Source: Nemertoderma westbladi (lineage: Eukaryota; Animalia; Xenacoelomorpha). Taken from it: a DNA stretch of 64,000 nt. Below are positions 7,118 to 50,846 of the stretch, one piece after another (position 1 is the first letter of the stretch; every line of letters starts with the position of its first letter). The position numbers and the translations under genes are program-made. The stretch spans positions 1 to 64,000 of the forward strand of contig JAUCBJ010007475.1 of NCBI GenBank assembly GCA_032718475.1. The letters run 5' to 3'. The notes beneath the pieces were generated by a model that saw only the letters and a program-made list of their open reading frames with translations, made no database searches and was not told the origin of the DNA.

Positions 7118-7463
7118 ATCATGGGTTAAAATCAAGGGTCCTTATTGGTTAAAATTGAAATGAAACTCACAAATTAAAATTGAGCGATTCTATCACAAAA
7201 TTGGTATTTAAGAAATTTAACTAAACCGCAGATAAATCAAATAAGAGGGGACAGCTCCTCCCCTTCAACCCCCCCCCCCCCCCCCAACTTAATCTGTATC
7301 CCAAAGGCGCACAGAGGATTGATGTCAGGCAGATACTGTATTAACAGAATAGGCGGTGTTTTAAAAGTAATATAATTTAGGCGTAGAGGCGACCCAATTT
7401 GTAAGAAATATATTAAAACTTGCCTTATGCCGATAGTATGGATGATACTGAAATATAATTTAC

Positions 7464-7979
7464 TGTTAGCTTATTCAATCCCGCTAACACCCCATAAAGT
7501 TATAAGCCGATAAGCAATATTGGGAGCCACGAGATTGGGTAATTAACCAACTCGTGCCATCCCAATAAGAATGGGAAGGAAGCACACAATAGAGGGTCAG
7601 GGGCCAAACCCCTAACCCAGAGAGAACAGGTGGAGTGAACGGGAACACTCCAAAGGGCGCCAACAAGGGTATCAACCAATCAGAGGGGGGAAAGGCATCG
7701 ATTAGGTAGAGTAACAAGGCCAACCGTGCAATATAGCCACTTGGCAGTAATCATACCAATTCAGTTATCTCAGTGCAATACCGGTGCTAGTTTAGGTTAT
7801 TACATAGTTTAGCTAGGGAAGGACCGGGACTTTAGTTACCGTATCCCGCCTTCCATATACAACAATATATCCCATATCTATATCTGTATCTATATCCACT
7901 TATCATATTATATACGACAAACATCAGAACTCATTCACTAAAACCGGATAAACCGGGATCCCTCTTGGATCCCGTCACA
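7464..7979 (+). repeat. 5' LTR of element A
   Basis: tgttagcttattc...gatcccgtcaca; nearly identical to 18462-19004 except for a 28-bp indel. Confidence 0.95.
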
Positions 7980-8055
7980 GTAACTAAACCGAGCTGCCGC
8001 CCTAGTCAAACTGTAAAACTAGCTAAACCACCAGTCACCAATCTGCAGAAGAGAG

Positions 8056-11000
8056 ATGAGTCGGTCAGGTGACACCACACCGACGCGGACCCCGGACGAA
8101 GAGTTAACGATCCGCGAGGCCGCAACCAGGCGATACAGGCCCACAACGCCGGACCCATCGGAAACGGGTCATCCGGCAGTTCAGGACGAGGGGGGCCTGG
8201 AACCCGAGGTCGAACCGAGAGAAAGAGAGGGCGAGACAGAGGGAGACGGAGACGAGTCGACACGAGACGGGGGTCGACGCACCGGTGTCGCCGGCCAGCC
8301 ACAGGCCGAGGGCGACGAGCGGCCCGCCGAAACGGCGACGGTGGGGCCGACGGTGCGGCCCCGGACGCAGAGAGACGAAGGAGATATCGATACCGATGTC
8401 GCCGGCCAGCCACAGGCCGAGGGCGACGGACGGCCCGCCGGAACGGCGACGGCGGGGCCGCCGGTACGACGTCGAACCCGGAGAGACGGACGAGAGGTCG
8501 GCGACGAGGACGTCGGGGTTTCCGATCGACTCCGACGGGCCTACAACGCGACCCAGAGACTACTAAAGGACGCTAAGAAGGAAGGGGCGAAGATAGACGA
8601 GGTGAGACTGAGGAAACGACTAGGTGAGTCGGATAGACACTTTAATTACCTAATGCGTTTTGGGCAGAGAGAACTAGCCGAGGAGAGAGCAAAAGGGGTT
8701 GCCAGCGAACTATTTGAACTATGGGAATGTGGGAGTATGGAACCTAGCGTAGCGTCAGTGTACATAGGGCCATACTTGGTCGATGCCCGGGGAGTAAAAT
8801 TAGTGGGTTGGAACAGACCTGAGGAGGGCGACTCCGAGGCTGACCCCGCGGATTCGGTCTCGTCGGTCGGAGGGAGTTCCGGGAGGAGGGGGAAAGCTAG
8901 TAGATCGGGAAGGCGGAGGGAATCCTCCACAACCGATAAGTCTGCTACATCCTCCGCAAAAGAAAGACGGGTGAGAGAGATAGACGCTAGGTATCGTCTC
9001 AATCTAGCAGTGCAAGGTAATAGAGAAGTAGGTAGACGGCTAGAGGAAGGGAGAGTGCTGCTGGAGAGGGAAATGGCGTCGATTGGAGAGATAAGAGAGA
9101 GGGCCGAAAGGGCCGTGAGGAGCCTTAGGGAGTATGATGAAATAGAGTTGAAGGAACAAGAAGAGCGTGTGGCGAGAGAGAAAAGTGAACGCAGAGAGCG
9201 TGAAGCGAGGGAGGAGAGTGAGCGTAGAGCGCGTGAGGCGAGGCGAAGGGAGGGGATTAGGAGAGAGGTGAGAATTGGCCAAGCAGACCGAACGGGAGGC
9301 TATGGATAAAATAGCAAAAGTGGAGCGTGAGCGAAGAGAATTGGAGAAACAGCGAGACAAACTCGTAGAGTATGAAGCTATACACACGCGTGAGGTGGAA
9401 CTGGCGCAGATGGGGGAGTCTGAGAGCGAGGCTGGCTCGAGTATTTTTGAGGAGCCGGGGGCCGTGGATACATTTATTAATACCCCACTTACAGGGACCG
9501 CACGACAGACCCAAAACTGGTGTGACCGTACGGGCGGGGGGGGGGGGGGGGGGGGGGGGGTAATAATGATAATGGTACAGTAGACGTGGTTAATATTAAT
9601 AGTACCGTATGGGACAATTCTAATCAAACCTTTATTGCAGGAAATACTTTACCTAGTGGTAGTAATTTAAATTTAAATCAGAACATTCCTAATATTAATG
9701 TAGAAAATAATTCTAATATTAATGTAGCTACGCAAAATAATCCAATTAATCAAAGTAATAACCCAAATTCGAACTTACAAAATAATTTAAGTAATGCAAT
9801 AACACAAAATAATCCAAATAACTTAAATAATTCAGCGAGCCCGAATTTACAAAATAATTCAGATAGTGTAGTCGCGCAAGATAATTCAAATGATTTTATT
9901 TCGAACGAACAAATTAATTCCGTTTCCAATACGGGTGCTATTAATGTAAACACGTCGGGCGTGTATGGCCAGACAGACGAGGGCCTGGTAGGCCACGTAG
10001 TTGGTAGGCAGGGAGTGGCTGGGTTAGGTAGACCCAGCGAGGGCCTGGTAGGCCACGTAGTTGGTAGGCAGGGAGTGGCTGGGTTAGGTAGACCCAGCGA
10101 GGGCCTGGTAGGCCACATAGTTGGTAGGCAGGGAGTAGAGGGCCTGGTAGGCCACGCAATAGCAGAGGGAGAGGCGGGGGTGAATAGACCCGACCGCGGT
10201 AGGGTTGATGTGTCGACTGGAGAGGGATATAGTAGCGGGGTGAGGAGTAGCGAAGTTAGATGTGGCGAGTGGGGGGGGGGGGGGGCTACGAGAACCCCAC
10301 AACAGCGAGTTAGCGGCGAAAGGGGGGGGGCAGAGAGTGTCCCACAGCCGTCAGCGGATAATGCGCGGGCCGAAATAGGTAAACCGCAACAACCGGCGAC
10401 GGAAAGTAATAGGGGGATTGCGAGTATCCCCAGCGGCGTGCGACCGAGCAGAGAGAGACAGGTTGACGTCGTAAGAGGGCGGACGAAGCGTCGAGCCCGA
10501 TCAGAAGAGGGAAGAAGAACAGTGGGGTTTAACCGGGAGGTCGACGAGAGATCTCACGAGCGGGAATACTCCACTGAAAGGAGAAGAAGAGAAGACAGTA
10601 GTAGAGGTATCGCCGCGAACGATAGAAGAGCGAGGACGGATAGCGAGCCGTCGGTAGTTGAGATGAGAACGGAGAGTCAGTGGGGTCGGACTCCGGGAGA
10701 TTGCCGTCGCCCCGGAGAGATGCGACCCGGCGAGGCGCACTACGCGCCGAGAGAGGGGTACGCGATGTACCGGTACGAAGATGAGAACAGTAGAGAGGGG
10801 GGTCGAAGAGAAACTTTCCGACGGAATACACCTATCGATCGAGAATACGGTAGCCGCGGGGAGGATTATTCGAGAAGAATAAACTTCGATCCCGAACAAC
10901 ACATGCAGACTGTAGGACATACTGTAGGCCTTACTGCACATACCATAGGCCATACTGAGAGAGGCAATGTAGGCGATAGGATAGCGTGGACAACGGGATT

Positions 11001-13923
11001 AAACCCGGAAGTCGCGGAATACATACCGGCGGGTAGGCCAGAAGCTGATAGGCCTATACCGGTACCAGCACAGCAGTATGACTACAGCATGCAGGGACAT
11101 AACATATACCCAGGGGAGGGGGGAATTATTGCGGATAGGTGTATGGGCCCCAACATATTAACATCAACCCCAGTACCAAACATACCGGTGGGGGGGGGAC
11201 AGGGTGACATTCCCCCATCACAATATCAACAATATACCCCGATAGGAGCAAGAACAACGAGACCCTTGGATGAGAATAGGTCGTGTGACACAGACATATG
11301 GAGGGGGCCGCTACCCCCGATGACATACCCAAGTCAGAGAAAGTCAAGAAATAGGACAGACGGAACGCACCAGACAGGAGAAACTATGCAGCACCCATCG
11401 AATCCATTGGAAGCGCAGGCGATGGGGATGGCCACGTTGATCGATGCGTTGAAAACGAGGATCGAGTTACCACCCGTGGAACCATTCAAATTCGATGGGA
11501 GCAGGCCGGAAGAATATCTACAGTTTCGGCGCATGTATAGTAACGAAATACTAACAAAAAACTTGACGCAGGCGGAGTGCCTAAAGTATCTACAAGTGTA
11601 CACGGGAGGCCCAGCATACGACATCGTGAGGCAATATCAAGGAATAGAGGGCGGCTTCACGACAGCATGGCGGGCACTGGATAGGGAATACGGGCACCCG
11701 GCCAAGATCATCAGGCAGACGCTGAGAGGCATAACATCGGGTGGCCTACAGGATAATCCCGTTAGCATTAAGACGTTCGCTAACAAAGTCGAAAAGGCGC
11801 TAATCGTGCTGAAGACGCTAGACGCGCCGTACGAGCTCAATGCGTCCAACAACATCACCACGATAGCGCAGGCACTACCAAACTGGCTGCGCAACAAGTG
11901 GAGGAAAATCGCCTTCTCCACTCGAGATAAGAAGGGTGCGGAACCGGGTTTAGAAGAAATGTCAAACTTCTTAAACTACGAGGCTGAACTAATAACTGAC
12001 CCAGTCTATAGCGAAGACAGCCTGGGAAAGGGACCGAAGACAGACTACCATAGACCGAAACCAGAGCACAACACATCGAACGCATTACCGAGACTCAGGC
12101 AATCATTGCCATATGCAGCGACGCAGGGGACTGCAAGTCCACAGCTAGCCGAGGATAAGACAACATCATGGAACGGACAGGGAAACAATAACAACACGAA
12201 TAAACATAACCCCAGTACGTCCAATAGGCAAAACCCAAACAATAAGAATAGTAGGGACTTTGGTACGAACGCAACTGCGATACGCAATGCACTGTATAAA
12301 GAGGGCTACGACCCAAAGAGCAAATGTCAGCTACACGCAAATGCGCTTCATCAAACTATGAACTGCAGGTACTGGCAGGCGCTACCTAGGCAAGATCAGA
12401 TAGATTATGCGTTCAGCAATAAAATCTGCTCGCGATGTGTAATGAGTGGACATAGAGCAAGGGAGTGCAAGGAGAAGCCAATGAAATTTGGTCAAAGGAG
12501 AGGCCAAACGATGGCGACGAGCACAGTAGGGGCGAAGAAGAGAGGAACGGTGCTACTTGGAGTAGTACCAGTACGAGTGATCGGGGAAGGCAATCGATCA
12601 GTAACAACACTAATGCTGGTTGATAGTGGAGCTGCCTTCACATTAGTCGAGGAATGGGTGGCCGAGGAGATAGGATTGAGAACGAGGCCAAGCAGGATGG
12701 CGGTAACAACCATCTCTAGCAAAGATGAGATCCTGGAGATGAGAACAGGACGGTGCGCAATTGCAGCAGTGGCACCAGGATGCGACTATGGGGCAACCAT
12801 CGACCCCATTCAAGTGATAGAGTCAATTAATATCAATGCCAGGCGGCCAACCAACATCGAGGTCGAGCAGTATAAATTCCTGGACGACATTGACTTCTCA
12901 ATCCCAGACGTGGACGTTAGGAAGGTATCCATCATAGTAGGTATGGACTGCCCAACGGCCCACGAAAGAATGCAAACGGTCTTCGGCGAAGACAAGCAGA
13001 GTGACCCGGTGGCCATATTAACACCATTCGGGTGGACACTGACAGGCCCAATTAAGAGTAATATACCATTCCATGTGTCCGAGAGTTCAGGATGCATGGT
13101 GCCAGGAACTGACGAGATAGAGGAGAGGCCAGAGATGGGCAATAGTGGTAGACAGCTAGAAGTAGAAGCAACACCAAGAGAGTGGGCGGAGGAGAATGGT
13201 ATGGATGCAGAAGATCTAGAGACGATGGGTTGGAATAAGGGTCCCAGCAAGTATCGGTATGGAGATGGAGAGGAGCGGACGGTGGAGTGTCGGGAGGACA
13301 AACCGGAGAAGTGTCCGGTGGAGTGTCCAGAGGAGCGCCCGGAAGAGACGCCGGTCCGGTTGAGAGGCATACCGACAAGGGGGAAGCCGAGTAAGAATAC
13401 AAGATGGAAAGGGAGAAGATGTGAGACGATCAGACCAGGGGCAGAGAAGCCCATGAATAAACATATGGTGGACAAAGGAGCCGGGAGAGTAGGAGGCGTG
13501 CTGCGTACGCACGCGGAACTGACAGAGTGCGAGGGGGCATTACATGGGCAGACATCGTGTATACCGAAGGACGAACGGGGGTCGTTGAAGCCTTTAATGC
13601 CAGCACACATATTAAGGGGGAGGCCAGCAGAGGTGGCATCTAAGATTAAGGAGAAGAACAGGGGCGGCATTATACCGCCGGGTGACACGTTGAAGGGTGG
13701 CACTTTGCCGCCAAGGGACGACCACGAGATCAGAAACATAAATAACAGACAGCATTTGCAAAAACAGGAGAAAAGACCACCTATCGAATTGACAAGGAGA
13801 GCGGAGCGAAGAATTAGAGAACCTATAGGGGGGCAGTGGGAGAGTTGCCTGCTGGAGGAATCACCCCTTGGGTCGCTGAGTTGTCCAACAGGTTGGACTG
13901 GGATGGAAGAGTTAGATCCGTAA
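8056..13923 (+). pseudogene. Gag-protease polyprotein of element A with integrase C-terminal vestiges; apparent compensating frameshifts near 9280 and at the G-run near 9540-9560
   Basis: PVEPFKFDG (DUF1759-type Gag), CQLH..H...NC and CSRC...GH....C knuckles, LVDSGA protease, TPFGWTLTG, degenerate LKPLMPAHILRGRP and CLLE; ORFs 8056 and 9586 share a frame. Confidence 0.85.
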
Positions 13924-14089
13924 AAGGTGCGGGCAGAGGTGTTACCTGTCTGCTAGAAGGGGCGCCTTAACTTGGAGTTAGAGTAGAGTTTAGTCGTCCA
14001 AGTTTTGGACTGAGGGGGGTGGGATTGAGGGCGAGACGCCCTTCCCACAAACAAGATAATAAAATAAAATAAAAAAAATAGTACATGGT

Positions 14090-14760
14090 AGGTACGCAGT
14101 TAGTAGGCAGAGAGTTAGTAAGAAGGTACGTAGTACCCAGTTAGTTAGTTAGTTAGGAGGTACGTAGTACCGCCAGTTAGAGAGTTAGTTAGAGGGTACG
14201 TAAGTACCGTTAGTTAGTTAGTTAGGAGGTACGTAGTACCGCCAGTTAGAGAGTTAGTTAGAGGGTACGTAAGTACCGTTAGTCAGAGAGTTAGAGGGTA
14301 CGTAGTACCGCCAGTTAGAGAGTTAGTTAGAGGGTACGTAAGTACCGTTAGTCAGTTAGTTAGAGGGTACGTAGTACCGCTAGTCAGAGAGTTAGAGGGT
14401 ACGTAGTACCGATAGTTAGTTAGAGAGTAAGAGGGTACATAGTACCGATAGTTAGTTAGAGGGTACGTAGTACCGATAGTTAGTTAGAGAGTTAGAGGGT
14501 ACGTAGTACCGATAGTTAGTTAGAGAGTTAGAGGGTACGTAAGTACCGCTAGTTAGTTAGAGAGTTAGAGGGTACGTAGTACCGATAGTTAGTTAGAGAG
14601 TTAGAGGGTACGTAAGTACCGCTAGTTAGTTAGAGAGTTAGAGGGTACGTAAGTACCGCTAGTTAGTTAGAGAGTTAGAGGGTACGTAAGTACCGTTAGT
14701 TAGAAGAGTTAGAGTTAGAGGGTACGTAGTACCGTTAGTTAGAAAAGAGAGAGTAAGAGG
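14090..14760 (+). repeat. Tandem array of ~18 units (30-37 bp), each with a GGTAC-GTA(A)-GTACC hairpin
   Basis: gagggtacgtagtaccg(a/c/t)tagttagttagagagtta repeated. Confidence 0.95.
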
Positions 14761-15229: not shown

Positions 15230-17752
15230 ATGGCGAGTAAGTTGATCAGAAAGAGAAAGGCGGAGTCAGGAGGAAAGGAGATACTGGTGGATTTCACCGA
15301 GAGACATCCGGAAGAGAAGACGAGAGGATACTACGAGAGGTTGGAAAGGGGTCACGCGGCACGAGCGCTGCAGGATCACTTCCGGGAGGCGCACGAACAG
15401 CGGCTGGTCGGGACCTATGGGACGCCGTCGCTGGACAACGCGATCTTCCAACACTTCCACTACGTGGTGAAAGGGGACGAGGCGAAGTTCGGGATTCCCA
15501 AATACCCGAGGGAATCACCGAGGAAGGACTGGAAGAGATTCATAGAGTCCGTCAACAGAGGAGGATATATGATCCTAGATGACGAGGGAACCGTGGAAGA
15601 TGAGGCGGGTTCGAGACGAGGAACGGCGGGGTCGGCCAGGACCATACTCCTACATTTGGCCGCGCCAAATGGGGACATCTTCTTATTCGACCTAGGGACG
15701 TATGGGAAGAAGGACGGGCCGAAACTAAACCGGTTACCAAAAGCGGTACAAGTCTTAGTAAGAGAGAAGTCGACGACGAAAGTGGGATCGGCGATTCGCG
15801 AGGATGCGGAGAGAATCATCGGTCCGGACGCCACCAACCTCCTGGATATGCAGAAAGTCTTTATGGCTATGACGGCACCGGATGGGTTGGGGGTAGTCGA
15901 AAACACAGGCCAATGTGGGGCGGTGGCGATGGGCCAATTATTGGGGCTCGTATGCCACAAACCAATGGATTGGGGGAAGTTTAGGGAAGAATACGGAGCA
16001 GAACTAGCGAACTCGCTAAAGTGGGGAGCGAGACCGGGAAAGCAGGAGGTATATCAGTTCCGCAGGGGAGCGATAAAGGTATATCAGAAGCGATATATCC
16101 TGCAGGAGGACTGGATGATGATAAGTTTGCTCAACTTATTCATGACCATAGTTATCGAGAGGGAACCAGGGGCATTTCTGTTATCGGGATCACCCCTAAG
16201 CTACAGGAGAGCCTTTAAGACGGCCTTTGACGGTCTGGTAGACCACCCGGGGCTGAAGGGCGAGTCGGTGTACTACAACAGCCGACATCTGGTAGACAGG
16301 GAGACAGATACACAATATCAGAGATGGGAGCAGCTAGAGGCGGATAGACGAGAAGCAAAGCGACTGGAAGAAGTCGCTAGACGGGAGAGGATAGAAGCAG
16401 AGGAGAGGGAAGAGGAGGCCAGGACACAGAGTTACGGCTTCGAGGAACAGGCGGGCCTAGACGAACTTCATTGGACTTCGTCAGGGAGTTCGGGGGAGTC
16501 TCTAGGGCGAGAATTGGGATGGACGGTGGGATCGCCGAAACAGTCGACGTCGGGGTTGCAAACGATGCCCATACCAGCGGGCGCCGAGGGCGACCAACCG
16601 CCAAGGAAGTTACGGGAGCTAGAGGGATGGAGAGCTACGGGTGAGAGCCAAGGCGGGAAGGGACATAGTGGATCCATCGGGATACCGGGGTTGGAGACAC
16701 TACCAGAAGAAGAGGACGACGACGACGAGTTCGGAGAGATGCCGCCCATCGAGAGGATAGGCCACTCGGACACGGACTGGGTTGGCGGAAGGGTGGTGAC
16801 GGCCAGTGGGGCGAGGGCCTTCTGGAACAGATCCGGCAAGCGGACCTGGGTGCACGAGGAGCCGGCGATGGATTTTGCGGGGAGCACCATCAGGTTGGGC
16901 GAGCAACCGGGAACGGCACCACGGATAGTATTCGGGGAGACGATGCCCGAGAGGGGCAGAGAGATCGACGTAGACAGGGAGACCAACGTAGAGAAGTTCG
17001 CCTACCAGCGACTCCACAGACCGCGGAGATCGCTTGGGACGAAAGACGAGGTGGGACGGGAGACATTGGTACTCGGCTGCGACTACTGTGGGAGACAGAC
17101 CCATCGGGAAAGCAGCTGCCTATACCGGTTCCAAAAGGGAACCTTTTGTCTCTACTGCAGAGAACAAAGCCACAGGATGGGGGCGTAGTGCCACTTTCGG
17201 GGACACTACGGACGCGAGTGCGACTGGATGAACGACGAGGAGAAGTTCACAAGATTCGAGGAGTGGGCCGACGTCGGGGCCATGACGCGCCAGCGCATGA
17301 AGGCCCAGGAGTTCAAGTGGGGTTTCTTCCTTATCAATCAGGAGACTCACATGGAAATCATAAAGCGGAGGCTACCGTTTACCTACCAAGAGGTGGCAAC
17401 GGCGGCGTCGTACGCTGGAGTGATGAACACGCAAAGGTATCTGGACAGGTGGACGCCAGAGAACCGAAGGGAGTTTAGGGATTTCTTGGCGGAGCACGTA
17501 CCAAGGGCAATGAAAATGATCCTATGGGACGCCACTAGAGGGAGACAGCCGGGCCATTCTGAGGGGCCACCGGCGAAGCGATATCGGGCACTAATAACAC
17601 CAGCGCCCAAGGAGCCAACGACCGGGATCAGCAAGGAAATGGCGGCGAAGGTTCGAAAGCAGAAAGCGGATGATGCCAGAGGAACGGTGATAACCAAGAA
17701 ACGACCCAGGGAAGAGGACGCCAGGGGGAACTACCCCCAGAGGAACAGATAG
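15230..17752 (+). pseudogene. Accessory ORF of element A: DEDDy-like 3'-5' exonuclease + zinc knuckles; one in-frame TAG at 17186-17188
   Basis: ILDDEG, LPKAVQVLV....KVGSAIRED, LLDMQ, YILQED; CDYCG..H....C, CLYC...H, CHFRGH...C; collinear with 47007-49607. Confidence 0.75.
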
Positions 17753-18461: not shown

Positions 18462-19004
18462 TGTTAGCTTATTCAATCCCGCTAACACCCCATAAAGTTA
18501 TAAGCCGATAAGCAATATTGGGAGCCACGAGATTGGGTAATTAACCAACTCGTGCCATCCCAATAAGAATGGGAAGGAAGCACACAATAGAGGGTCAGGG
18601 GCCAAACCCCTAACCCAGAGAGAACAGGTGGAGTGAACGGGAAAACTCCAAAGGGCGCCAACAAGGGTATCAACCAATCAGAGGGGGGAAAGGCATCGAT
18701 TAGGTAGAGTAACAAGGCCAACCGTGCAATATAGCCACTTGGCAGTAATCATACCAATTCAGTTATCTCAGTGCATACCGGTGCTAGTTTAGGTTATTAC
18801 ATAGTTTAGCTAGGGAAGGACCGGGACTTTAGTTACCGTATCCCGCTTTCCATATACAACAATATATCCCATATCTATATCTGTATCTATATCCACTTAT
18901 CATATTATATACGACAAACATCAGAACTCATTCACTCTTTATACACGGCGGGGACGCGTGAACTAAAACCGGATAAACCGGGATCCCTCTTGGATCCCGT
19001 CACA
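18462..19004 (+). repeat. 3' LTR of element A
   Basis: Preceded by PPT gggggggag and followed by TSD tttac. Confidence 0.95.
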
Positions 19005-27357: not shown

Positions 27358-27455
27358 ATTTATTTTTTCATAAACAAGAGGAATTTCTTCACCATCTTCA
27401 TCCTGATGAACTGCTTTAATGTACAGCTCCACATACTCCTTAAAGTTCTTCACAG

Positions 27456-37612: not shown

Positions 37613-38683
37613 TGTTCGCGGTATTTCAACTTTCCATAACGCGAGTTGAATATTTTTGTATTTATTTAAAATTGATTATTCCGATATTATTACTGGGTGC
37701 GGGACCATGGGTTTTGGGCACATTCAATAAACTGGGGGCGATTTATGGGCGAACTTTGGGGCAACTTACAGGGTACGGGAATAATTTCATAATTATAAGG
37801 GCCAGGGGGGGGGGGGGGATGGAGAATTCAAGCAGTATTCAGGTTAGCCTGAGTACTATTAGGCCCTGGCCAACTTCCTGCTGCCTGTAGGGGTGGATTT
37901 GGTAATGCGCCAGGCCTAAAGGACAAGGACTGCCCTTAGCGGTCCCTGGCCAACAGCAGCTATTACGAGACTGAAAAGAACTCGGACTGCTGACTGCTTG
38001 TGTCAGGGATTTGCGACGGGAAACGACAGCCCCTTAGTAGCCAAGCCGTTCTGGTTCTCGATGATCGAACCCTTCGGGGTTCGTGAGGGGTGGAATGGAC
38101 ACGCGAACGGGTCCACCGACACGACAGACTCCTAGCCAAGCCGTACTGGTTCTCGATGACCATCCTTCGGGGTTCGAGAGGGGCGGTACGGATACGCGAC
38201 AGAGTCCACCGACTGGACCGACCCTTAGCTAAGCCGTGCTGGTTCTCGATGATCGTTCCCTTCGGGGTTCGTGAGGGGTGGAACGGACACGCGACAGGGT
38301 TGACCGACACCGACACTACGGCACTAAGACTAGGACCAAGGGAAAAATCTGGGGAACATTAGGTAGGCTAAAATCTGAGCGAACAGTGGGTAATTAAATA
38401 ATATACCGTAGGGATTTATATTATCGTGTATAATTATTGTGAATATTTGGTGTATATTGATTTGGGGAAGCCCAAAATTATTCTTAATCAGGTTTCAACT
38501 GTAGGAAGTTACATTAAAGAGTATATCCAACTAATGCAGCTTTTTATCAACCGCAAACTTGCATCTCAGAAAACATTCCTTCTCCACAATCAATATCCGG
38601 TGACTGGCCGGGGCTCGGTGGTCTGTAAAGTCACGTCTCCAGCATCGGCGTTTTTCCCCCCTGGTGTAGGGATAACGGCAACA
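37613..38683 (+). repeat. 5' LTR of element B
   Basis: tgttcgcggtatttc...ggcaaca; close match to 49773-50846. Confidence 0.95.
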
Positions 38684-39080
38684 AAATTAAGAATAATTAC
38701 GTTCAACTTCAACTGGTGGAAGTTGAGAATCCTTCAATACTCTTCAAAAACTCTCTACGTGCTTGCCAGCACCCACTACGAGGAAACTCGGGTATTTGAG
38801 TTGAGACGAAGTCGTGGTTTAATTAATCAACAAACTCGATCTAACCAACTCGTAGTCGGCAGATCACATATTTGGAGAGTTGTTAACAGGGAATGGAAGT
38901 ATCGATCACACCCATTGATATAATTCAAGTTGAGCCAGGAATCTGGCACGTCGAAGTTGAAGTACAAGGAACGAACGTCGGACGATTCAGGATTACCGTT
39001 CGGGTGGTCCAAGCTGAGTACAATACCTACGAGGAACTGTTTTATGACATCGCGTATCTAGCTATCGACGAGGCGTTACA

Positions 39081-42000
39081 ATGACGACAAATAACGTATC
39101 CGATACCGACGAGATGGATCACCACACAGACTCGGAAGCCGACGAGGTACCAAACGTCAAGAACATGACCCGTCGGCTAGGGGCTCTCAAAGGTGGAGTA
39201 ACCCGGGCGTATCAACGGATGGAGAAACAACTCAAGGGAGTCAAAACCCCCCTCAATGAAGTACAAACTCAGCTTCAAAGTATCCGAAATATCCTACAGC
39301 GGTACGAAAGAATGATACAGGCGTACCAAGAGCTCGTTCCCTCCACCGATCAGGAAAACTACCCCAAGTTGGAAGAACACGTTGTACATCTAGATGGGTT
39401 CCGCAAACAACACCGGAGGACCCTCAGCCTTGTGAGAGGCTATGAAGAACAGTATTACAAGAGGGCTGAAAGAACAGACGCGGAATCAGTACGATCCTCC
39501 AGCATCAGGACAGCAGTACATCGCAAGAGAACGGGGTCCGCTAGAAATCAGCACTCCAGCGCTAGGAGCGAGATATCCGGCTCAGCGCGCAGTTCTCAAG
39601 GGGCGCCGCCACTCCGAGACCAACTGCGAGAACGGAAGGCATTAGCCCTCAAAGCTCGGATGGAAGATGAGTATATTCAACTGCAAGCCGAGCAAGATGT
39701 ATTAGCCGCCGAAACACAAAGGCGAGAGGCCGAACAAGCGGCTGAACGGCAGGCCGAACAACGCGAACAGGAGGCCGAGCAACGCAAACGAGAGGACGAA
39801 CAACATAGACGAGAGGATGAACGGCAGGCCGAACAACGCAAACAGGAGGCCGAACAACGCAAACAGGAGGCCGAACATCGCGGACGAGAGGCCGAACGAG
39901 AGATCGAACAACGTAAATGGGAAGCAGAAATGCGTTAACAACACGCCGAGGCACAAGCAATTCTCATCCACAAAAAGAATGCGGATATTGCAAAACTCGC
40001 GGAATACGAAGCCGCACTTATAGAACGGGATATTCAACTCTACGAGGACTGGGAAAGGGATATAGATCAGGAATATGAACCAATCCCGGTACCGGAATTA
40101 GAAAAGTCATTTATACCGACAGCGGCGAAACTTCCGAAACCCGAGATCCCGCCGACCAAACAGTCTACGCTATCGGCACAAGCACCGGTGTTCCATCCCC
40201 CACCGGCTACGCTAAAGAATGAGGAACCTTATTTCCCATCCAACACCACGACAGCGAGTGTACCCAAGTACGAGCCTGAAAAGGACTTGGAACGGGACGC
40301 CACTCCCCGATCTAACAACCCATTTACATCCACACCACAAACTCGTAGCCGCGTCATTATTAAAACTCCACCTATTATTGATCCATCAAGTATGGGAGTG
40401 AGTGCCAATAACTATAACCCTCCGAGTCACTCTAGTTCAGACGACGTCAGCATCATCCGGGCGTTGGAGAACCGCCTTGCCATGCCTAAGATGGAGATTC
40501 GCACCTTCGAAGGAGATCCCGTCGATTACCTCAGATTCAAGAAATGGTTCTTTGCGCAGATCGGATCAACGGACATAGCCGACGCACAGAAGTTGGTATA
40601 TTTATCGCAATACCTGGGTGACAAACCACGCAGAATTATTGCATGTTTTGAAGGAGGTTCTCATGAGGCATACTATGACGCATGGAAAACTCTAGATAAA
40701 AGATACGGAAATACCGGAACTATAATTAATAAAACTCTAGAGAGACTGATACAGGACGCGGGATCACTAGGGGACCCACAGAACATCCAGGAATTCTCCG
40801 ACTCTATGAAGGATGCCTACTATACTCTGAAACCCTTAAATAAGGAGGACCAGGTGAACAACATTCTAAACCTCCGACAGATCGCCCGGAAGTTCCCTGG
40901 ATGGCTACAAAGTAAGTGGGCTTATAAATGTGTAGATCTCCGGCGCAGACATCCAGATCGAGATCCTAGCTTCCTTGAAATGTCGGCATTCCTGGACGAT
41001 ATCTCCGAAGCCATGAATGACTCGATGTTTTCAAAACAGAGTCTCGCAAAGTTGGACGGAATAGAGAGCAACTCCAGGAGTAAGATAACCCCTCCGAAAC
41101 CGAGATTCCGCCCCCCACCGGTGAGTACGATGGCCATCACCATGGCCGAGGATTCCGACGACGAAGACTACGAGGAACCGACATCCGCCGAGGAATGGGC
41201 ATGTTATCTCGCGAGTTGGGCACCCGAAAGGGAAGGCATCACAAATTCCCTGCTCTGTCTCTTCTGTGGGGAGAAACATAAAGTGGAATTCTGCAGAAAG
41301 TTTCAGTTCGCCGAACTCGTCCCACGCTTCGAGGCGATAATGAAACACCGAGGATGCTTCCGGTGTCTTGGAACAGGTCACTATGTTCGGGAGTGCGACC
41401 AAAGATCATGCTGTGCTGTCTGTAACGACCAACGCCATCACACGCTCCTCCACATCCCCGCGAACTTCGATTTTACTACCCTCCCCTTTCGGATCGAAGC
41501 CAGGCGAAGAGGAGAAACAAACCACGTCTTCAAAGCAACCCGGACAACCCAACGGAGAGAAACCAACCCGTTTAAAATCTCCACCGATACACCACAAGTA
41601 ACAAATATTTCGGCCACGATTAATCTTATAAATCGCCGCTACATGGTCTTCGCAAAGGTAATCCCAGTAAGGATCCAAGGAGTCGGCAAATCTTTGACGA
41701 CACTCGCGTTCCTCAATAACGGGTCCGACGGAACCATCATCGACCGGGATTTCCTCGAGCAACTCGGCCTAGAATATGAACCTTGTAAACGGCCCATACA
41801 AACCATCACCGATAACAGAGAGGTAGAGTCCGGGGAGGTGCAACTCCAGATGGAAGGAGTGATGAAGGGCTACGAAAAGGTTAAGTTAACCATCAAGAAC
41901 GCCTTGGTACACACAGACCTCCGGGTGCGGTTCCGACAATCAGCCGAGTACGCACCCCTCATACAATTGGACCGAGACGATGTAGACCTGAGGTGCCCGC

Positions 42001-45000
42001 AGTTGGACGTAAACCGCATCACCCTACTGATCGGACTTGATACACCGGAACTACACATCCCCACCGGAGATATCGCCCGATCTATAAAACAGGATGACGG
42101 ATTTTATGCTGAACGAACAATAATGGGATGGACACTCTGCGGCATTAAGGAGGAAACTACTGACACCTATACCTACCTTCCCAAATGTCAGATTAAAGAG
42201 AATGCAACCTCCGTGGGTTATTGCTCGGCTTCGGATCTTGACGAGGATTTGTTTCTGGAAACCGAGAAAACCCAACGAGAGATGACGAAATATTTTAATT
42301 TGGAGACCCAGGAGTTCGCAGAAAAGGACGAAAACCCATCCGAAGAGGACCAATATTGTATGGACGTTCTCGACCAGGCCACGTTTAAAGACGGACACTG
42401 GTGTTCACCTATGTTATGGAAGGACCCAAACAAACCAATGGCAAACAACGCCAGCATGGCACTTAGGTGACTTAAAGGGATTCTACGCCGGCTGAATGAC
42501 CAACCCGAGATAAAGGAGAAATATAATACCGTAATCCAAGGATATCTCGATGATGGATTAGCAGAAATGGTACCACGGAATGAACTGCAAGGTGGTAAAA
42601 GAACATATTATCTCCCAACCCACTATGTAGTAGAAGCCCGCAAAGGTGGGAAAATCCGAGTGGTAAATGATGCTGCCGCTATGTACCAGGGCGAACCCCT
42701 AAACAGTCAGCTTTACACGGGACCCAGCATATATAGTGCACTCATCGGCGTATTGATCAGGTTCAGGGAAAACCGGGTAGCATTCACCTGTGACATCAAG
42801 GCCATGTTTCATCAAGTTCGTACGTTACCAAGAGACTCGGACTGTCTACGTATCCTATGGACGGATAAAACGCTAACTCAACAGGAGATTAGCCAACTCA
42901 CGATAAAGGACGTAGACGTAATGCGTATGGTCGTCAGGATCTTCGGCGCTAAGGACTCGCCAGTAGCATGCAGTGACATGCTAAAGAGGACGGCAACTAT
43001 GTGCGAAAACGAGTTCCCTCCAACCGTCATAGAAACCATTCGACGATGCTTCTACGTGGACGACGGATGCGCCGGCGCGGATAATGTGGATGAGGCATAT
43101 CGGCTAGCAATGGGGATGGTAGAATGTCTAAAGAAAGGAGGGTTTCCGCTCGTGAAGTTCAGATCCCACGACAAAACACTTATGGAAAAGTTTCCGGAGG
43201 ACATCCGGCTGGAAAATAACAAAATGTATTCGGAGGATGTGGAACATTGTGTACTCGGGATTGAATGGGACATAGAATCAGACAAATTCATCTTCAAATA
43301 TAAACCCCTACCCAAGCCTATGACAAAAAGGGGATGTTTGTCGATAAAAAGCGCCATCTTCGACCCACTAAATTTCATATCTCCAGTAACCTTGGCCGGA
43401 ATGAACCTGATTAAGGAAATGTGGATAGAAGGACTGGGATGGGACAAAGAGCTCCCCCCACACCTCAGCATCAAATGGAGAAAATGGACGGAGCAGCTCG
43501 AACACCTACATCTTATGCGGATACCTAGACCGTTCTTCCTCGATAAATTACCCACCGATATCTTCCAGCTCCACACCTTTTCGGATGCTTCGAATACCGG
43601 AATCGGCGTAGTCACCTTCTTACGGAGACTAAGTAACGATGGAAACGGCGATACAAGCTTCTTATTCTCCAAAGCAAAGACAGTATCCGGGGAATTCGTA
43701 GCAACGATTCCGAGACTCGAGCTATAAGCTGCAGTTTGGGCAGTAAGACAGAATCGCATGGTCATGCGGAATCTACGGATCCCCATAGAATCTCAACACT
43801 TCTGGGTCGATTCGAGTATAGTTCTCTATTATCTCCACTCTCCATCACGGCGTCACACCACGTTTGTTGCAAACCGAGCCACGGAGATTAAACAGTGTAC
43901 CGGCCGAGAACAGTGGCATCACGTGAACGGGAAGGAAAACCCAGCGGACTTATCAAGCCGAGGCGCCACCCCAAAACAACTCGGTAAGAGTAAACTCTGG
44001 CTTACAGGCCCGGAATTCCTACGGCAGCCACAATTAACATGGAGTACCCGATTCGACCTCGAACTCGATAGCGGAAAATACTCCGAGGACGATAAAGAGA
44101 TCCGTAAAGTCCATCGAAGCAACGCGGTGGAAATTTATAGTTGTCTGACTGAGCCTGCACAGGACTCGGGCAGGCACTATAACGTCGCGACGATCACTCA
44201 ACTAGCGGCGTCTCTACATCGGTTGATCGAGCGAGCTTCATCAATGAGACGGCTCGTCCACCACGTTATAACCCTCCGTAACTTCCTACGGTGGAAAAAC
44301 AACAAACCGATAGTTCAACGGAATATACAAGAACTCATTATCGCGGAGAAGTGTATTGTTAGATATGTCCAGAGAGAAAGTTTCCCCGATGAATGGGAAC
44401 AACTTAGTGCGGGCAAAACATTGAAACCAGACAGCCCAGTCTACCAACTGAGACCAATGATGGGCGAGGATGGACTGATCCGACTGAATACCCGGATGGC
44501 AAACGCACCGGTCGAATATGAGGTTAAATACCCGGCACTTCTGCCCGGAACGTCGACACTAGCTAAGCTATTAATTCTACAATGTCACGAGGACAACCAC
44601 CACGCAGGACAGAATTGGATTATAGCTAATATAAGACAAAGATATTGGATCACCCACATCCAGCCACTGATCCGGAAAGTGTTGAAACGTTGCTTCACCT
44701 GCAGACGTTACCTAGCACCACCAATCACCCAAAAGATGGCCGACCTACCAGCCACCCGTCTACAAGCAGATTCCCCACCGTTCTACGTCACCGGAGTGGA
44801 CTGTTTCGGACCGTTTACGGTCATCGAACGACGATCCAACATCAAATGCTGGGGAGCCATCTTCACCTGCCTAAGGTCTCGGGCAATTTACCTAGATATC
44901 GTGGTAAATCTGACACAACACGCATTCATCAACGCTCTGCGTCGGTTCGTGGCGAACAACGGGACATGCCGCCACATGTATTCCGATAATGGTACAAACT

Positions 45001-45758
45001 TTGTGGGAGGAGAAAGAGAACTTAGAGAGGCGATCGAGGGATGGTTTACCGATAACACCGCATCCCAAGTCTGGAAGGAACACCAGATACAGTGGCACTT
45101 CCAGACCCCCTTAGCGCCCCATACGAGCGGGGTATGGGAGAAACTGATCAAACTAGTGAAACGATCCATGCGCGTCGCTCTAGGCGATACCCGGGTAACC
45201 CATGACACCCTCCGCACAACATTCTGCGAGATCACGGCTACCCTGAACAACCGACCCATTGTCCCTATCCGCGACGACCCCACAGACCTGGAGCCCCTCA
45301 CTCCTAACCACCTACTGGGGAGACCCAAAACCCACGTTCTCCCGGAAACCATGTTCCCGGATCCCAACGAGATCGCGAAACATACAAACTGGAAAAAGGC
45401 CCAAGCGTTGGCAGCGCATTGGTGGAGAATTTGGGCCCAGGAGTACCTCATAACCCTCCGGACCAGGAGGAAATGGAACAACACCTACCGGAACGTCGCA
45501 GTTGGCGACATGGTACTAGTTAAAGAAGATCTCAAAGACCGCATGCACTGGCCTGTGGCGCGGGTCGTGACCATACACCCAAGCAAAGACGGACTTGCAA
45601 GGACTGTGACGATACGAACGAAATCGGGCCACTACCAACGCCCTATCCAGAGGCTGTGCCTTCTTGAAGGCAATGATAGCGGTGATTCTACGAGAGGTGA
45701 TAAGTTCCCTACTACGGATCCTGCTACAGACATTGGTGACAATTATAAATGCGTTTAA
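39081..45758 (+). pseudogene. BEL/Pao Gag-Pol in one reading frame with three in-frame stops (39936, 42468, 43725)
   Basis: All four ORFs share a frame. IRTFEGDP Gag, three Cys/His knuckles, FLNNGS protease, DIKAMF and YVDD RT, FSDAS and IPRLEL RNase H, HHCC + GVDCFGP/SDNGTNF/GVWE integrase. Confidence 0.96.
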
Positions 45759-47006: not shown

Positions 47007-49607
47007 ATGGACCCAAATCGCCAAATTATCGGCGAATTACGTAGCACGATAGATCTACTGGAATATTCGCAACCTGGATCCCCTGACTTTGATACAAATT
47101 GGAGTACCCTGCTAAATGAGAACGTGCGAGTCATTAAATTCACCGGGCGAGAGGGACCGGATTCCAAGAATCTACGAGCCCTCCGGTTAGCCGATGCTAG
47201 TACGAGACTGAAAAGAACTCGGAACGCAAAGGCTACCGGAGGGGATGACTTGTCGTATTGGGAAACGTTCCGGCAGAGCGTCTACAGATCCCGATGTTTG
47301 ATCTACGACAACGAGGGAAATGCGACGCCCACCTCGAAAGCGATTACGTTGGCGAGATGTCAAAGTTTCGTCGACGACAAGAGTACGTACCTCGCCCACT
47401 GGGGAAACCTGTCGGAGTGTACGGCAACGCTTCGAGAGGAACGTATATCGACCATCCAGAATCGCGACGACTACCAGGAAAAGTACGGGGCGAAAGAATA
47501 CGGTCGATCCTTAGTCGTCGTCCTCGGAACCCTGGACGGTTTGGTACTGGTGTGCCGAATATTCCCGACACCCAGACAGGAAGTGCAGGCAGCCGGAGCG
47601 ATCTGGTTGCTAGCTCCGGAAATCCAAAAGATCCTCTTCGACTTCGACGTCATTAAAATCGGGTCGGATATCAAGGCGGACGTCCGGAACGACTACGCGA
47701 ACGCTCCTGCAGGAAGAAACCGACGAGACGACCTCAACGCCCTTAGCCATTGCATCGACACTCAAACGCTACTAGCCTGGTTACGATTCGCCGAGTTCAT
47801 GCGAGGATTCCAAGAGGTGAGACCGACGAAATCCGGGATCGGCTACCTCGCTGTGCTAAACGGCGGTATCGACTTCAAACCCCAGAAATTCCGGGACTAT
47901 AATAAAATATATGGTGGATACCCGGAATTAGAAATAAAGAGCGAGCGAGAGGGTCGATGGAAGGACGTTGATCGGAATTGGACGATACACCAAAGGTGGG
48001 AGAATCCCGATCGACGGAACTACGTTTACGTCGTTATGGAATGCTACACCGTCGCTAAGTTTATCTGTAAGACTCTCGATAACCTCATTACGGCGGTTCC
48101 CCTTTCCTTCGTCGACTACGACTGGAACGAGGTCATAAACCACGCGTTCAAAGCGGTCGAGAACATTACACCGGGAGAGACAAAAACGCTCGCCGTTATC
48201 GATTCCTGGGACGAGAGCGGACCTTACGACATCCCTACGATTACCGAACTTCTCGGTGCGGATGAGCCTCTGATCTCTTCGGAAGGGGAAGAGATATGGC
48301 TAAACGAGGGTGTTCTACTCTCCACCCCGAAGCGACAACTCGAGCCGGAGGCCGCTTACCAACCGGCCGCCAAACGGGTTGCCTCGGCCGAACCGATGAA
48401 GAGAACAGGTGCTTACACCCCACGCGGCTCCGGTAGCCCCGTGAGGGAGGTAGCCACTACATCTGCATTGAGCGACTTCGGCGACATATGCCAACGGTTA
48501 TCCCCGTATCCTTTCCCGGGTGGCGAAGATTGGTCGTCGGAGATTCCGAGTACCAGCCACCAACGGACCCGCTCAGCGATACTGGTCGAGGAGGGCCCCA
48601 GCGATGCGCCGACCCCCGACGATCTCCTCGGTATCCCTCCGTCTAAAACCCCGGCTCCTCTTCGCCGACCAGCGGTGGCTACTACACCCGCCGTTCCTCA
48701 GGACCCTATGCGACTAACCCGTTGGTACGCCGAGCAAACTGAATGGATCCACCGCCAGAAACGGTCGTCCGAGTTGAGACCAACGGGACACAAAGAAGGT
48801 TATCGAAGCGAGAACCTACTACGCAAAAGCCTTGCATTCCGCGGGCTACCGGCCACCGCGAATATTCCGAGGAGCGACCGACGACTCGAATATTACGTCG
48901 GCCTCCCGATTCCGATATTCCCCGGTCGAGAGATGCAGTTGGAGGTGTGCGGCGACTGTGGTTCGGAGCAGTGCCCACGCGGTAGAAGGAATCGGGTTAC
49001 CGATTCATGCCTCCAGCTCCTCGGGATACTCTATTGCCCATACTGCGCGACATCGGGCCACGACGTTTCCGTCTGCCCGATCCTATATAACCTCTGCACC
49101 ACGTGCGGTTTCCATGGACATTCCTCTAGCCCCCGCTGCTATATCAAATGTCCAACCAAGGACGTAACCGCTATGGGAAATATGGTCATGTTTGAAACAT
49201 ACGCAAACAGCCACTTAAAGACCAAGGTTCGGAGAAACGCTCGGAATATCGCGCAGGAGATGGCGTGCGGGTATTTCTCCTTCCCGGAACGCCTCCACAC
49301 GTCGGCCACGCTGCCTTTCCATTACGTGGACTTGTTGCTGAGCGCTGGATTATTCGGCCCATTCGAAGTCATTAGACGCTTATACTCGTATAAAGAGGAG
49401 TTTGGTGACGGAGAGTGGTTCCTCGAGGCTCGCAACTCCGAGTTGGAACGACGAACCGATATGATCCCGATGCCATCGAAAGGAAGAGCCGCCAGAAGAC
49501 AAGCCGAAGCGTTGCTCACGATGGATGTTGACGCTCCTCTACCAGCTATAGCGATCGATGAGAGCCGACGGGCGAAAAGGCGAAAGGTGTATCAGAGAAA
49601 GAAATAG
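47007..49607 (+). CDS. Accessory ORF of element B (866 aa): DEDDy-like 3'-5' exonuclease, disordered linker, zinc-knuckle cluster, basic NLS-like tail
   Basis: IYDNEG (ExoI), LAPEIQKILFD..VIKIGSDIKAD (ExoII), CIDTQ, GIGYLA, YVVME (ExoIII-like); CPYCATSGH....CP, CTTCGFHGH; RRAKRRK. Confidence 0.8.
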   Translation: MDPNRQIIGELRSTIDLLEYSQPGSPDFDTNWSTLLNENVRVIKFTGREGPDSKNLRALRLADASTRLKRTRNAKATGGDDLSYWETFRQSVYRSRCLIYDNEGNATPTSKAITLARCQSFVDDKSTYLAHWGNLSECTATLREERISTIQNRDDYQEKYGAKEYGRSLVVVLGTLDGLVLVCRIFPTPRQEVQAAGAIWLLAPEIQKILFDFDVIKIGSDIKADVRNDYANAPAGRNRRDDLNALSHCIDTQTLLAWLRFAEFMRGFQEVRPTKSGIGYLAVLNGGIDFKPQKFRDYNKIYGGYPELEIKSEREGRWKDVDRNWTIHQRWENPDRRNYVYVVMECYTVAKFICKTLDNLITAVPLSFVDYDWNEVINHAFKAVENITPGETKTLAVIDSWDESGPYDIPTITELLGADEPLISSEGEEIWLNEGVLLSTPKRQLEPEAAYQPAAKRVASAEPMKRTGAYTPRGSGSPVREVATTSALSDFGDICQRLSPYPFPGGEDWSSEIPSTSHQRTRSAILVEEGPSDAPTPDDLLGIPPSKTPAPLRRPAVATTPAVPQDPMRLTRWYAEQTEWIHRQKRSSELRPTGHKEGYRSENLLRKSLAFRGLPATANIPRSDRRLEYYVGLPIPIFPGREMQLEVCGDCGSEQCPRGRRNRVTDSCLQLLGILYCPYCATSGHDVSVCPILYNLCTTCGFHGHSSSPRCYIKCPTKDVTAMGNMVMFETYANSHLKTKVRRNARNIAQEMACGYFSFPERLHTSATLPFHYVDLLLSAGLFGPFEVIRRLYSYKEEFGDGEWFLEARNSELERRTDMIPMPSKGRAARRQAEALLTMDVDAPLPAIAIDESRRAKRRKVYQRKK

Positions 49608-49772: not shown

Positions 49773-50846
49773 TGTTCGCGGTATTTCAACTTTCCATAAC
49801 GCGAGTTGAATATTTTTGTATTTATTTAAAATTGATTATTCCGATATTATTACTGGGTGCGGGACCATGGGTTTTGGGCACATTCAATAAACTGGGGGCG
49901 ATTTATGGGCGAACTTTGGGGCAACTTACAGGGTACGGGAATAATTTCATAGTTATAAGGGCCAGGGGGGGGGGGATGGAGAATTCAAGCAGTATTCAGG
50001 TTAGCCTGAGTACTATTAGGCCCTGGCCAACTTCCTGCTGCCTGTAGGGGTGGATTTGGTAATGCGCCAGGCCTAAAGGACAAGGACTGCCCTTAGTGGT
50101 CCCTGGCCAACAGCAGCTATTACGAGACTGAAAATAACTCGGACCGCTGACTGCTTGTGTCAGGGATTTGCGACGGGAAACAACAGCCCCTTAGTAGCCA
50201 AGCCGTTCTGGTTCTCGATGATCGAACCCTTCGGGGTTCGTGAGGGGTGGAACGGACACGCGAACGGGTCCACCGACACGACAGACTCCTAGCCAAGCCG
50301 TACTGGTTCTCGATGACCGATCCCTTCGGGGTTCGAGAGGGGCGGTACGGATACGCGACAGAGTCCACCGACTGGACCGACCCTTAGCTAAGCCGTGCTG
50401 GTTCTCGATGATCGTTCCCTTCGGGGTTCGTGAGGGGTGGAACGGACACGCGACAGGGTCGACCGACACCGACACTACGGCACTAAGACTAGGACCAAGG
50501 GAAAAATCTGGGGAACATTAGGTAGGCTAAAATCTGAGCGAACAGTGGGTAATTAAATAATATACCGTAGGGATTTATATTATCGTGTATAATTATTGTG
50601 AATATTTGGTGTATATTGATTTGGGGAAGCCCAAAATTATTCTTAATCAGGTTTCAACTGTAGGAAGTTACATTAAAGAGTATATATATCCAACTAATGC
50701 AGCTTTTTATCAACCGCAAACTTGCATCTCAGAAAACATTCCTTCTCCACAATCAATATCCGGTGACTGGCCGGGGCTCGGTGGTCTGTAAAGTCACGTC
50801 TCCAGCATCGGCGTTTTTCCCCCCTGGTGTAGGGATAACAGCAACA
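49773..50846 (+). repeat. 3' LTR of element B
   Basis: Follows gggggggac; ends gcaaca, then TSD atctt. Confidence 0.95.

Follow-up and report, generated by a model that had tools for sequence, protein, structure and literature searches.

A predicted DEDDy-type exonuclease joined to CCHC knuckles in the third gene of two BEL/Pao-type elements from Nemertoderma westbladi

Exonuclease genes in retroelements

Enzymatic third genes are rare in long terminal repeat (LTR) retrotransposons, and the literature searched describes the DEDDy exonuclease type only for elements of bdelloid rotifers, without shown selection or function. There, RNase D-like DEDDy open reading frames (ORFs), termed ORF3, are carried by the LTR retrotransposons Juno and Vesta and by Athena/Terminon Penelope-like elements (Rodriguez, Kenefick and Arkhipova 2017, PMC5408684), an account that is repeated in the available part of a review (PMC5718144). 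According to the available excerpts of the 2017 paper, some of these ORFs contain Cys-His-Cys motifs and their function is not known. As a kind, the DEDDy ORF3 of a retroelement is already known from that publication. Here we describe two candidate genes of this kind in a 64,000-nucleotide (nt) stretch of Nemertoderma westbladi DNA (contig JAUCBJ010007475.1, hereafter the window), a repeat-rich eukaryotic sequence that contains two LTR elements, A (7464-19004) and B (37613-50846). The gene under study, ORF3-A (15230..17752; this and all further features lie on the forward strand unless marked otherwise), belongs to element A, which has no recognizable reverse transcriptase (RT), and its counterpart, ORF3-B (47007..49607), belongs to element B.

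We give an even chance to the reading that ORF3-A is the third gene of an RT-less, BEL/Pao-type element and that its product, a DEDDy exonuclease with CCHC knuckles, trims 3' ends for the replication of the element. As in the rotifers, ORF3-A and ORF3-B are predicted DEDDy ORFs downstream of pol in a retroelement. With the rotifer genes, as the excerpts present them, they share this place as an extra gene, the DEDDy class, the replacement of one catalytic Asp by Glu, Cys/His metal motifs (in some of the rotifer ORFs) and the lack of a membrane domain. In contrast to the rotifer systems, the host here is BEL/Pao and not of the Juno/Vesta clades, and the Glu stands at ExoIII (D-E-D-E), whereas the paper writes DEDD to DEED. 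A long linker, three CCHC knuckles and a conserved C-terminal module set our genes apart, a distinction made by description only. Finally, copy numbers are very high here and low in the rotifer families, and we find a synonymous excess where the excerpts report no significant departure from neutrality.

The literature searched contained no account of an exonuclease ORF in BEL/Pao elements, and the word exonuclease is absent from the available text, supplements aside, of a BEL/Pao survey (PMC3118150) and of an envelope study (PMC13524379). What is new here is the BEL/Pao host, the fusion of a DEDDy domain to nucleocapsid-like knuckles and a conserved module as an architecture, the Glu at ExoIII, the abundance, the evidence for selection and the retention by an RT-less derivative. 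ORF3 would bring the DEDDy class into the BEL/Pao superfamily, and within a single genome it occurs there in two lineages that have diverged deeply.

Homology of the two third genes

The frame of ORF3-A is open from 15221, has its first ATG at 15230 and ends with a TAG at 17750-17752. In order, it comprises a predicted DEDDy 3'-5' exonuclease domain (15473..16255; placed by the model, the fold and profile matches and the motif table), a linker rich in Glu, Gly and Arg (16256..17020), a CCHC knuckle region (17078..17221), a C-terminal module of the form FEEWA..T..R...WGFF...LPFTY that was recognized as conserved by sequence comparison (17246..17443) and a basic tail reaching to 17749. ORF3-B, which starts with the ATG at 47007 in an 874-residue frame open from 46983, is intact; its exonuclease-like domain spans about 47235-48197, its knuckles 49035-49139 and its C-terminal module 49191-49355. 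A third copy of ORF3 was not found within the window.

An earlier note on this DNA had proposed, from collinear blocks, that ORF3-A is a divergent homologue of ORF3-B. All blocks it quoted are present at their places in both translations, and pairwise alignment recovers the C-terminal knuckle and helical part directly, with 24% identity over 129 columns (blastp E 1e-6) and a Smith-Waterman z of 10.3, a score that none of 500 shuffles reached. Compared directly, the N-terminal parts share the WKRF/WETF block alone and fall short of significance (blastp E 0.10; z 3.2; 1 of 500 shuffles as high), and the two linkers are unlike (z -1.1). The connection between the N-terminal halves runs through outside relatives. 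Querying 1.84 billion representatives with ORF3-B in HMMER returned five proteins at E <= 0.001 and nothing else, all of them unnamed proteins from assembly collections (P0002, P0003, P0004/P0007, P0005 and P0006). Two of these bridge the N-terminal domains: P0005 matches residues 101-319 of ORF3-A (E 3e-12) and 145-415 of ORF3-B (E 3.8e-9), and P0002 matches residues 107-319 (E 1.9e-8) and 176-311 (E 3.5e-14), respectively. Because these relatives match both N-terminal domains and the C-terminal parts align with each other, ORF3-A and ORF3-B are homologous over both conserved parts, as established for the N-terminal half by way of the shared relatives.

Other routes brought no further relatives. 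Word-indexed protein searches with ORF3-B, with the N-terminal domain of ORF3-A and with an alignment (A1) gave no match, nor did a metagenome scan with P0007. A scan with P0003 returned only its own 3,685-nt record (L001), in which no pol or LTR was recognizable around the ORF.

Could the likeness of the two genes be due to chance, or to independent captures of a host exonuclease gene, with an ORF that is not a functional gene? The weak direct similarity of the N-terminal parts and the empty word-indexed searches would agree with this, as would the at least two independent acquisitions in rotifers that the excerpts of PMC5408684 report. Yet the domain order, the three-knuckle pattern and the C-terminal module are the same in ORF3-A, ORF3-B and four outside proteins, and the representatives found at E <= 0.001 were five module-bearing proteins only, with no ordinary cellular exonuclease among them. 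Both families also display a strong synonymous excess (see below), and ORF3 has diverged much like the rest of the element: the Gag proteins of A and B are 30.5% identical (E 8.7e-27) and the proteases 23.7%, compared with the 24% of the C-terminal part of ORF3. We therefore consider chance or separate capture very improbable. The similar divergence of ORF3, Gag and protease fits joint descent, in a comparison of two elements only. The LTRs of A and B, which had looked unrelated in the earlier note, have no significant similarity. In the same note, ORF3 was taken for an old, selected module of a BEL clade; the synonymous excess speaks for selection, while for its age there is the parallel divergence of Gag, protease and ORF3 in these two elements.

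The N-terminal domain and its putative catalytic residues

The N-terminal domain of ORF3 is predicted to adopt a DEDDy 3'-5' exonuclease fold with a near-complete active site. A profile was built from an alignment of six N-terminal domains (A2) and compared with the sequences of the PDB. The top three of its five matches were two chains of Egalitarian (E 1.2e-4 and 6.4e-4) and EXD2 (E 0.19), and the columns of the ExoI D-x-E motif and of the ExoII Asp were aligned in the match to EXD2. The AlphaFold model of the ORF3-A domain (predicted local distance difference test, pLDDT, 62.6; predicted template modelling score, pTM, 0.66) reaches a pLDDT of 70-86 in the sheet and the main helices and has the RNase H-like alpha/beta architecture of the DnaQ-like fold. 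Searched with Foldseek, this model found DnaQ-like exonucleases in all of its best 50 matches (E from 5.5e-5); the 50 matches listed of 48,161 chains likewise all have the DnaQ-like fold, with DEDDy members on top, and Nibbler, EXD1, RICE1 and At5g06450 are among the structural matches listed. Two language-model look-ups, used as leads only, also pointed to the DEDDy exonuclease family. Together, the profile search, the fold search and the knuckle matches described below bear out the exonuclease-knuckle reading of the earlier note.

The catalytic positions can be followed motif by motif. ExoI reads D-x-E in both genes (D120 and E122 in ORF3-A, codons 15578-15580 and 15584-15586; D109 and E111 in ORF3-B, codons 47307-47309 and 47313-47315), with the Asp present in all six members of the alignment and the Glu in four. 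The ExoII Asp of ORF3-A, D195 (15803-15805), lines up with the Asp in both Egalitarian and EXD2, and this residue is present in four of the six members; in ORF3-B it is assigned to D233 (47679-47681) by its spacing from K-I-G, where MAFFT had placed D237 in the column. At ExoIII, for which the canonical motif is Y-x3-D, the residues are Y292/E296 in ORF3-A (16094-16096 and 16106-16108), Y349/E353 in ORF3-B (48027-48029 and 48039-48041), Y229/E233 in P0002 and Y337/E341 in P0005; P0006 has a Lys at the acid position and P0003 lacks the stretch. Thus, the full D, E, D, Y, E set is found in four of the six members (ORF3-A, ORF3-B, P0002 and P0005), and the four putative catalytic acids that the earlier note had listed for both ORFs, with Glu at ExoIII, are all in place together with the Tyr. 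The model places D120 in strand 1, D195 where a helix begins behind K-V-G, and Y292 and E296 in the long last helix. This strand and helix layout is that of ExoI, ExoII and ExoIII.

In comparison with cellular DEDDy proteins (Nibbler, EXD1, EXD2, Egalitarian, WRN, RNase D, Rrp6, NrnC and the Pol I proofreading domain), the order of ExoI, ExoII and ExoIII and their positions in the secondary structure match. In contrast, identity over the full domain is only 9-17% (21% over a 121-residue partial match to EXD2), and ORF3 has Y-x3-E in place of Y-x3-D, does not pass PF01612 and is encoded by a retroelement. Pfam gave no exonuclease match in ORF3-A or ORF3-B even at E up to 10, phmmer searches of the PDB sequences with ORF3-B and P0005 returned nothing useful beyond a weak Lin28 match, and a single-sequence AlphaFold model of ORF3-B (pLDDT 33) was not used.

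Several observations weigh against a gene for an active exonuclease. Glu replaces the ExoIII Asp in all four motif-bearing members. Three of the four acids are lost in P0003 and P0006, so that the conservation across the family on which the earlier note had relied holds in four of six members and fails in these two, and the exonuclease domain is missing altogether from P0004/P0007. No member reaches the gathering threshold of PF01612 (the best is P0002, with E 0.2 and 11.9 against 23.6 bits), and the model is of middling confidence, with a pLDDT below 50 in 86 of its 261 residues. Since the acids are lost in P0003 and P0006 and the knuckle module stands alone in P0004/P0007, the conserved core of the family is, judging from these sequences, its C-terminal half and not the active site. 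Both Egalitarian, the top match by sequence, and EXD1, one of the structural matches, function as RNA binders and not as nucleases, as stated for EXD1 in PMC5408684. To this it must be added that the ORF3-A copy in the window is itself broken, and that the selection analysis below counts only the 40 best-supported places per ORF, on contigs too short to tie selection to RT-less copies.

An alternative of minor weight is that the exonuclease-like domain is catalytically dead and acts as an RNA-binding adaptor of the EXD1/Egalitarian kind, which together with the knuckles would package, protect or transport the RNA of the element. In its favor are the Glu at ExoIII in every motif-bearing member, the two of six members that lack most acids and yet retain long open frames, and the occurrence of the knuckle module alone in one relative and twice in P0003, which makes the C-terminal half appear primary. 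Egalitarian is the top sequence match, EXD1 is among the top structural matches listed, and the excerpts of PMC5408684 describe EXD1 and Maelstrom as inactive DEDD derivatives that still bind RNA. However, D, E, D, Y and the fifth acid are kept in four of the six members at 23-33% identity, which is hard to explain if the site is not used, and a Glu could in principle still bind metal. We consider a dead adaptor distinctly less probable than an active exonuclease, although it is the strongest of the alternatives.

Knuckles and the C-terminal module

Following a linker of about 250 residues, ORF3-A and ORF3-B continue in the same order, with three knuckles, a stretch of the form FE.[YWF]A..G..T..R...G[FY]F...LPF.Y and a basic tail. 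This knuckle and C-terminal half, read from a whole-protein alignment (A3), is common to all relatives. Knuckle 1 of ORF3-A is complete (C620-C633) and has the CCHC spacing C-x2-C-x4-H-x4-C, and the knuckles are arranged in tandem; the invariant knuckle columns are, in the numbering of ORF3-B, C685, C688, H693, C698, C705, C708 and H713. The A3 profile matched the tandem knuckles of Lin28 (E 6.9e-5) and the knuckle of Trypanosoma brucei RNase D (E 6.5e-3) and, more weakly, retroviral nucleocapsids (E 0.03-0.7 for HIV-1). The Pfam family zf-CCHC stayed below threshold (14.3 against 20.8 bits for P0002).

Two outside relatives display the C-terminal half in other arrangements. In P0003, a degenerate exonuclease-like domain is followed by two copies of the knuckle and FE.FA module (79-2025 of locus L001), and P0004/P0007 contains a single copy, without an exonuclease domain. 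In view of the latter, the module also exists by itself, as far as these sequences tell.

The knuckles resemble those of Lin28 and of retroviral nucleocapsids in their C-x2-C-x4-H-x4-C spacing and tandem arrangement. They differ from them in that the knuckles of ORF3 are not part of Gag, and in that the third is of a C-x2-C-x3-GH type and is followed by a helical module. T. brucei RNase D, a cellular (mitochondrial) enzyme, is similar in design (PDB 7c42/7c45, 'CCHC-type domain-containing protein'): within a single chain, it likewise combines a DEDDy domain with a CCHC knuckle behind it, and the top language-model cluster for ORF3-B has its architecture (score 0.82, a lead only). In contrast, the trypanosome protein has a single knuckle directly after the domain, where ORF3 has three after the long linker, and it lacks the FE.YA...LPF.Y module.

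BEL/Pao elements with a third ORF are known to carry envelope-like genes, including the F-like protein of Roo and the chuvirus-like glycoprotein of mosquito elements (PMC13524379 and PMC3118150, as excerpted). ORF3 occupies the same place behind pol, which speaks for an envelope-like gene. A 19-residue Kyte-Doolittle scan and inspection of the N-termini, however, found no membrane segment or signal-like start in ORF3-A or ORF3-B. The highest mean was 1.32 in ORF3-A and 2.08 in ORF3-B, the latter on a strand hairpin of the exonuclease fold. Together with the predicted nuclease fold, this already contradicts an envelope-like ORF3, to which we attach next to no probability.

Abundance and selection

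To gauge how common ORF3 is, we used contigs from two DNA runs (X1 and X2) of one organism at 85% likeness or more; these are contigs and not copy counts. ORF3-A was covered by 3,348 and 5,877 contigs in the two runs, and ORF3-B by 1,384 and 2,837. Both families are very abundant. Variants among the copies were evaluated at the 40 best-supported places of each ORF. In ORF3-A (40 of 292 places), 32 of 40 fell on third codon positions and 32 of 40 were synonymous (binomial p 1.8e-9), and in ORF3-B (40 of 195), third positions and synonymous changes accounted for 30 of 40 each (p 8.5e-8). Because synonymous third-position variants are in such excess among the copies, this pattern is the signature of purifying selection acting on both ORF3 families while they diversified.

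A further run (X6, guessed to be RNA and from a second organism) contained 7 and 4 short contigs that are 85-99% alike to ORF3-A and ORF3-B, respectively. These are not evidence of expression; related elements may be present in another species and are perhaps transcribed there.

Thousands of contigs, and hence very high copy numbers, are also what would be expected if ORF3 were a counter-defence factor that trims, destroys or sequesters host Piwi-interacting RNAs (piRNAs) or small interfering RNAs (siRNAs) directed against the element. The closest structures listed include Nibbler, EXD1, RICE1 and At5g06450 as well as the knuckle-bearing T. brucei RNase D, and a mut-7-like role is discussed for the rotifer ORFs in the excerpts of PMC5408684. 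However, DNA polymerase proofreading domains, NrnC and WRN match the fold just as well, and we consider a counter-defence function unlikely. Similarly doubtful is a broader version, in which ORF3 would be a retroelement copy of the exonuclease-fold class of small-RNA and RNA-transport proteins (Nibbler, EXD1, Mut-7 and Egalitarian) that blunts piRNA/siRNA silencing or steers RNA, including on behalf of RT-less parasites. If true, such silencing escape or RNA steering would account both for copy numbers this high and for the selection that maintains ORF3.

A stop inside a knuckle of ORF3-A

The only internal stop of ORF3-A is a TAG at 17186-17188. Knuckle 2 is cut after its His, the TAG follows, and of knuckle 3 only the tail remains (C657-C667). 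In the family alignment A3, about 9-10 residues containing conserved Cys and His of knuckles 2 and 3 are gone from copy A. The gap is flanked by the His of knuckle 2 and, on its other side, by the C-x-x-R-G-H tail of knuckle 3, with the TAG at the junction, and the reading frame is identical on either side. Contigs of other copies from both DNA runs diverge from copy A exactly at 17186/17187/17193, with loose ends at these positions in 9 and 7 records in X1 and in 5 and 12 records in X2. The alignment gap and the diverging contigs together confirm the short deletion inside a knuckle that the earlier note had suspected at the stop. By sequence, then, an in-frame deletion has disrupted the ORF3-A of this copy and left a TAG within a knuckle, despite the young age of the insertion.

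An alternative genetic code was considered for the internal TAG and was ruled out: all three stop codons, TAA, TAG and TGA, terminate ORFs here, and TAG is the terminal codon of both ORF3s.

The elements that carry ORF3

Element A is flanked by a TTTAC target-site duplication, read from the sequence at 7459..7463 and again at 19005-19009. Its 5' LTR (7464..7979, TG...CA) is 99.4% identical to 18462-18936 over 476 nt and matches over a further 43 nt, and its 3' LTR (18462..19004) is preceded by the polypurine tract GGGGGGGAG. LTRs ending in TG...CA, a 5-bp duplication and a polypurine tract are structural features of BEL/Pao elements. Within the 3' LTR, 25 nt (18937-18961) have no counterpart in the 5' LTR; the other differences amount to three positions.

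Two ORFs precede ORF3-A. ORF1 (8023..9309, 428 residues) has no Pfam match. ORF2 (9526..13923, 1465 residues) contains, by Pfam, a DUF1759 Gag domain (residues 656-794, E 1.1e-10), which we take as the mark of a BEL/Pao Gag, and an aspartic protease (residues 1015-1071, E 3.5e-5). Both ORFs include coding tandem repeats, of 111-nt units in ORF1 (8281-8495) and of 60-nt units in ORF2 (9978-10136).

RT, RNase H and integrase were not found in any frame of element A (tblastn with the gag-pol of element B, E up to 1); in blastp and tblastn alike, that query matched Gag and protease only. Element A thus lacks the Pao-type RT/RNase H and the integrase of BEL/Pao elements (Peptidase_A17, rve and DUF5641), and because neither RT nor integrase was found in any frame, it is classed from its sequence as a non-autonomous BEL/Pao-type derivative and not as a full member. 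This RT-less status is established for this copy of the element, in which ORF3 is indeed retained without an RT, as the earlier note had stated.

Element B is complete in its domains. A duplication of ATCTT (37608-37612 and 50847-50851) surrounds LTRs at 37613..38683 (TG...CA) and 49773..50846 that are 98.4% identical to each other. A frame for Gag, protease, RT and integrase (39048..45758) matches the Pfam families DUF1759 (E 5.2e-14), Peptidase_A17, Integrase_H2C2, rve and DUF5641, so that LTR ends, 5-bp duplication, Gag, RT/RNase H and integrase all agree with BEL/Pao. This single gag-pol frame contains three in-frame stops (TAA 39936, TGA 42468 and TAA 43725), while ORF3-B is intact. Because the LTRs differ by 1.6%, the stops are probably decay mutations.

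The spacer between Gag-protease and ORF3-A is 1.3 kb long, and that between integrase and ORF3-B 1.2 kb. In element A it holds a tandem array of 37/69-nt units in about 18 copies (14109..14743), each unit with a GGTAC...GTACC palindrome (RNA fold z -3.05). Repeats lie in this spacer in both elements, those of element B (46030-46454) being three 83-nt copies about 170 nt apart. The repeats before ORF3 could act as an internal promoter, as a signal for processing or as an array of protein-binding sites.

Element B appears to be nested inside another repeat. A 160-nt repeat, 97% alike, lies on both sides of it (37024-37183 and 52101-52256), and a Ty1/copia-type RT fragment is located just past its 3' LTR (50753-51778, reverse strand).

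A possible role in replication

For ORF3 as a replication factor, we propose the following scheme. The product would consist of a DEDDy exonuclease domain, a loose linker, CCHC knuckles and the conserved C-terminal module. The knuckles and the basic tail would bind single-stranded RNA or complementary DNA (cDNA), and the exonuclease domain would trim the 3' end of the bound RNA or cDNA, serving the replication cycle of the element itself. In this scheme, we infer a metal-dependent nuclease activity and its substrate, as well as the benefit of ORF3 to the element.

Element A would borrow RT and integrase from an autonomous relative, whereas Gag, protease and ORF3 would act with a preference for their own coding RNA. 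Such a preference is suggested because the RT-less derivative keeps all three. Retention under selection, and by a derivative without RT and integrase, argues that ORF3 does something that is not easily borrowed. Being natural and intact, ORF3-B is a concrete test system for the part that an exonuclease plays in retrotransposition or in silencing escape.

Other features of the window

The window opens with an open frame that contains an RVT_1 reverse transcriptase (1-2433). Between the two elements, adjacent open frames at 26688-28513 match HATPase_c (E 4.1e-7) and a YTH domain (E 4.7e-45), and these are possibly a host gene or an unusual fusion. Further downstream, a minisatellite of 3.8 kb (29949-33733) is composed of 25-, 35- and 44-nt units that share the core TGATGCCACACTTACCTACC and has a very strongly negative GC skew (-0.5).

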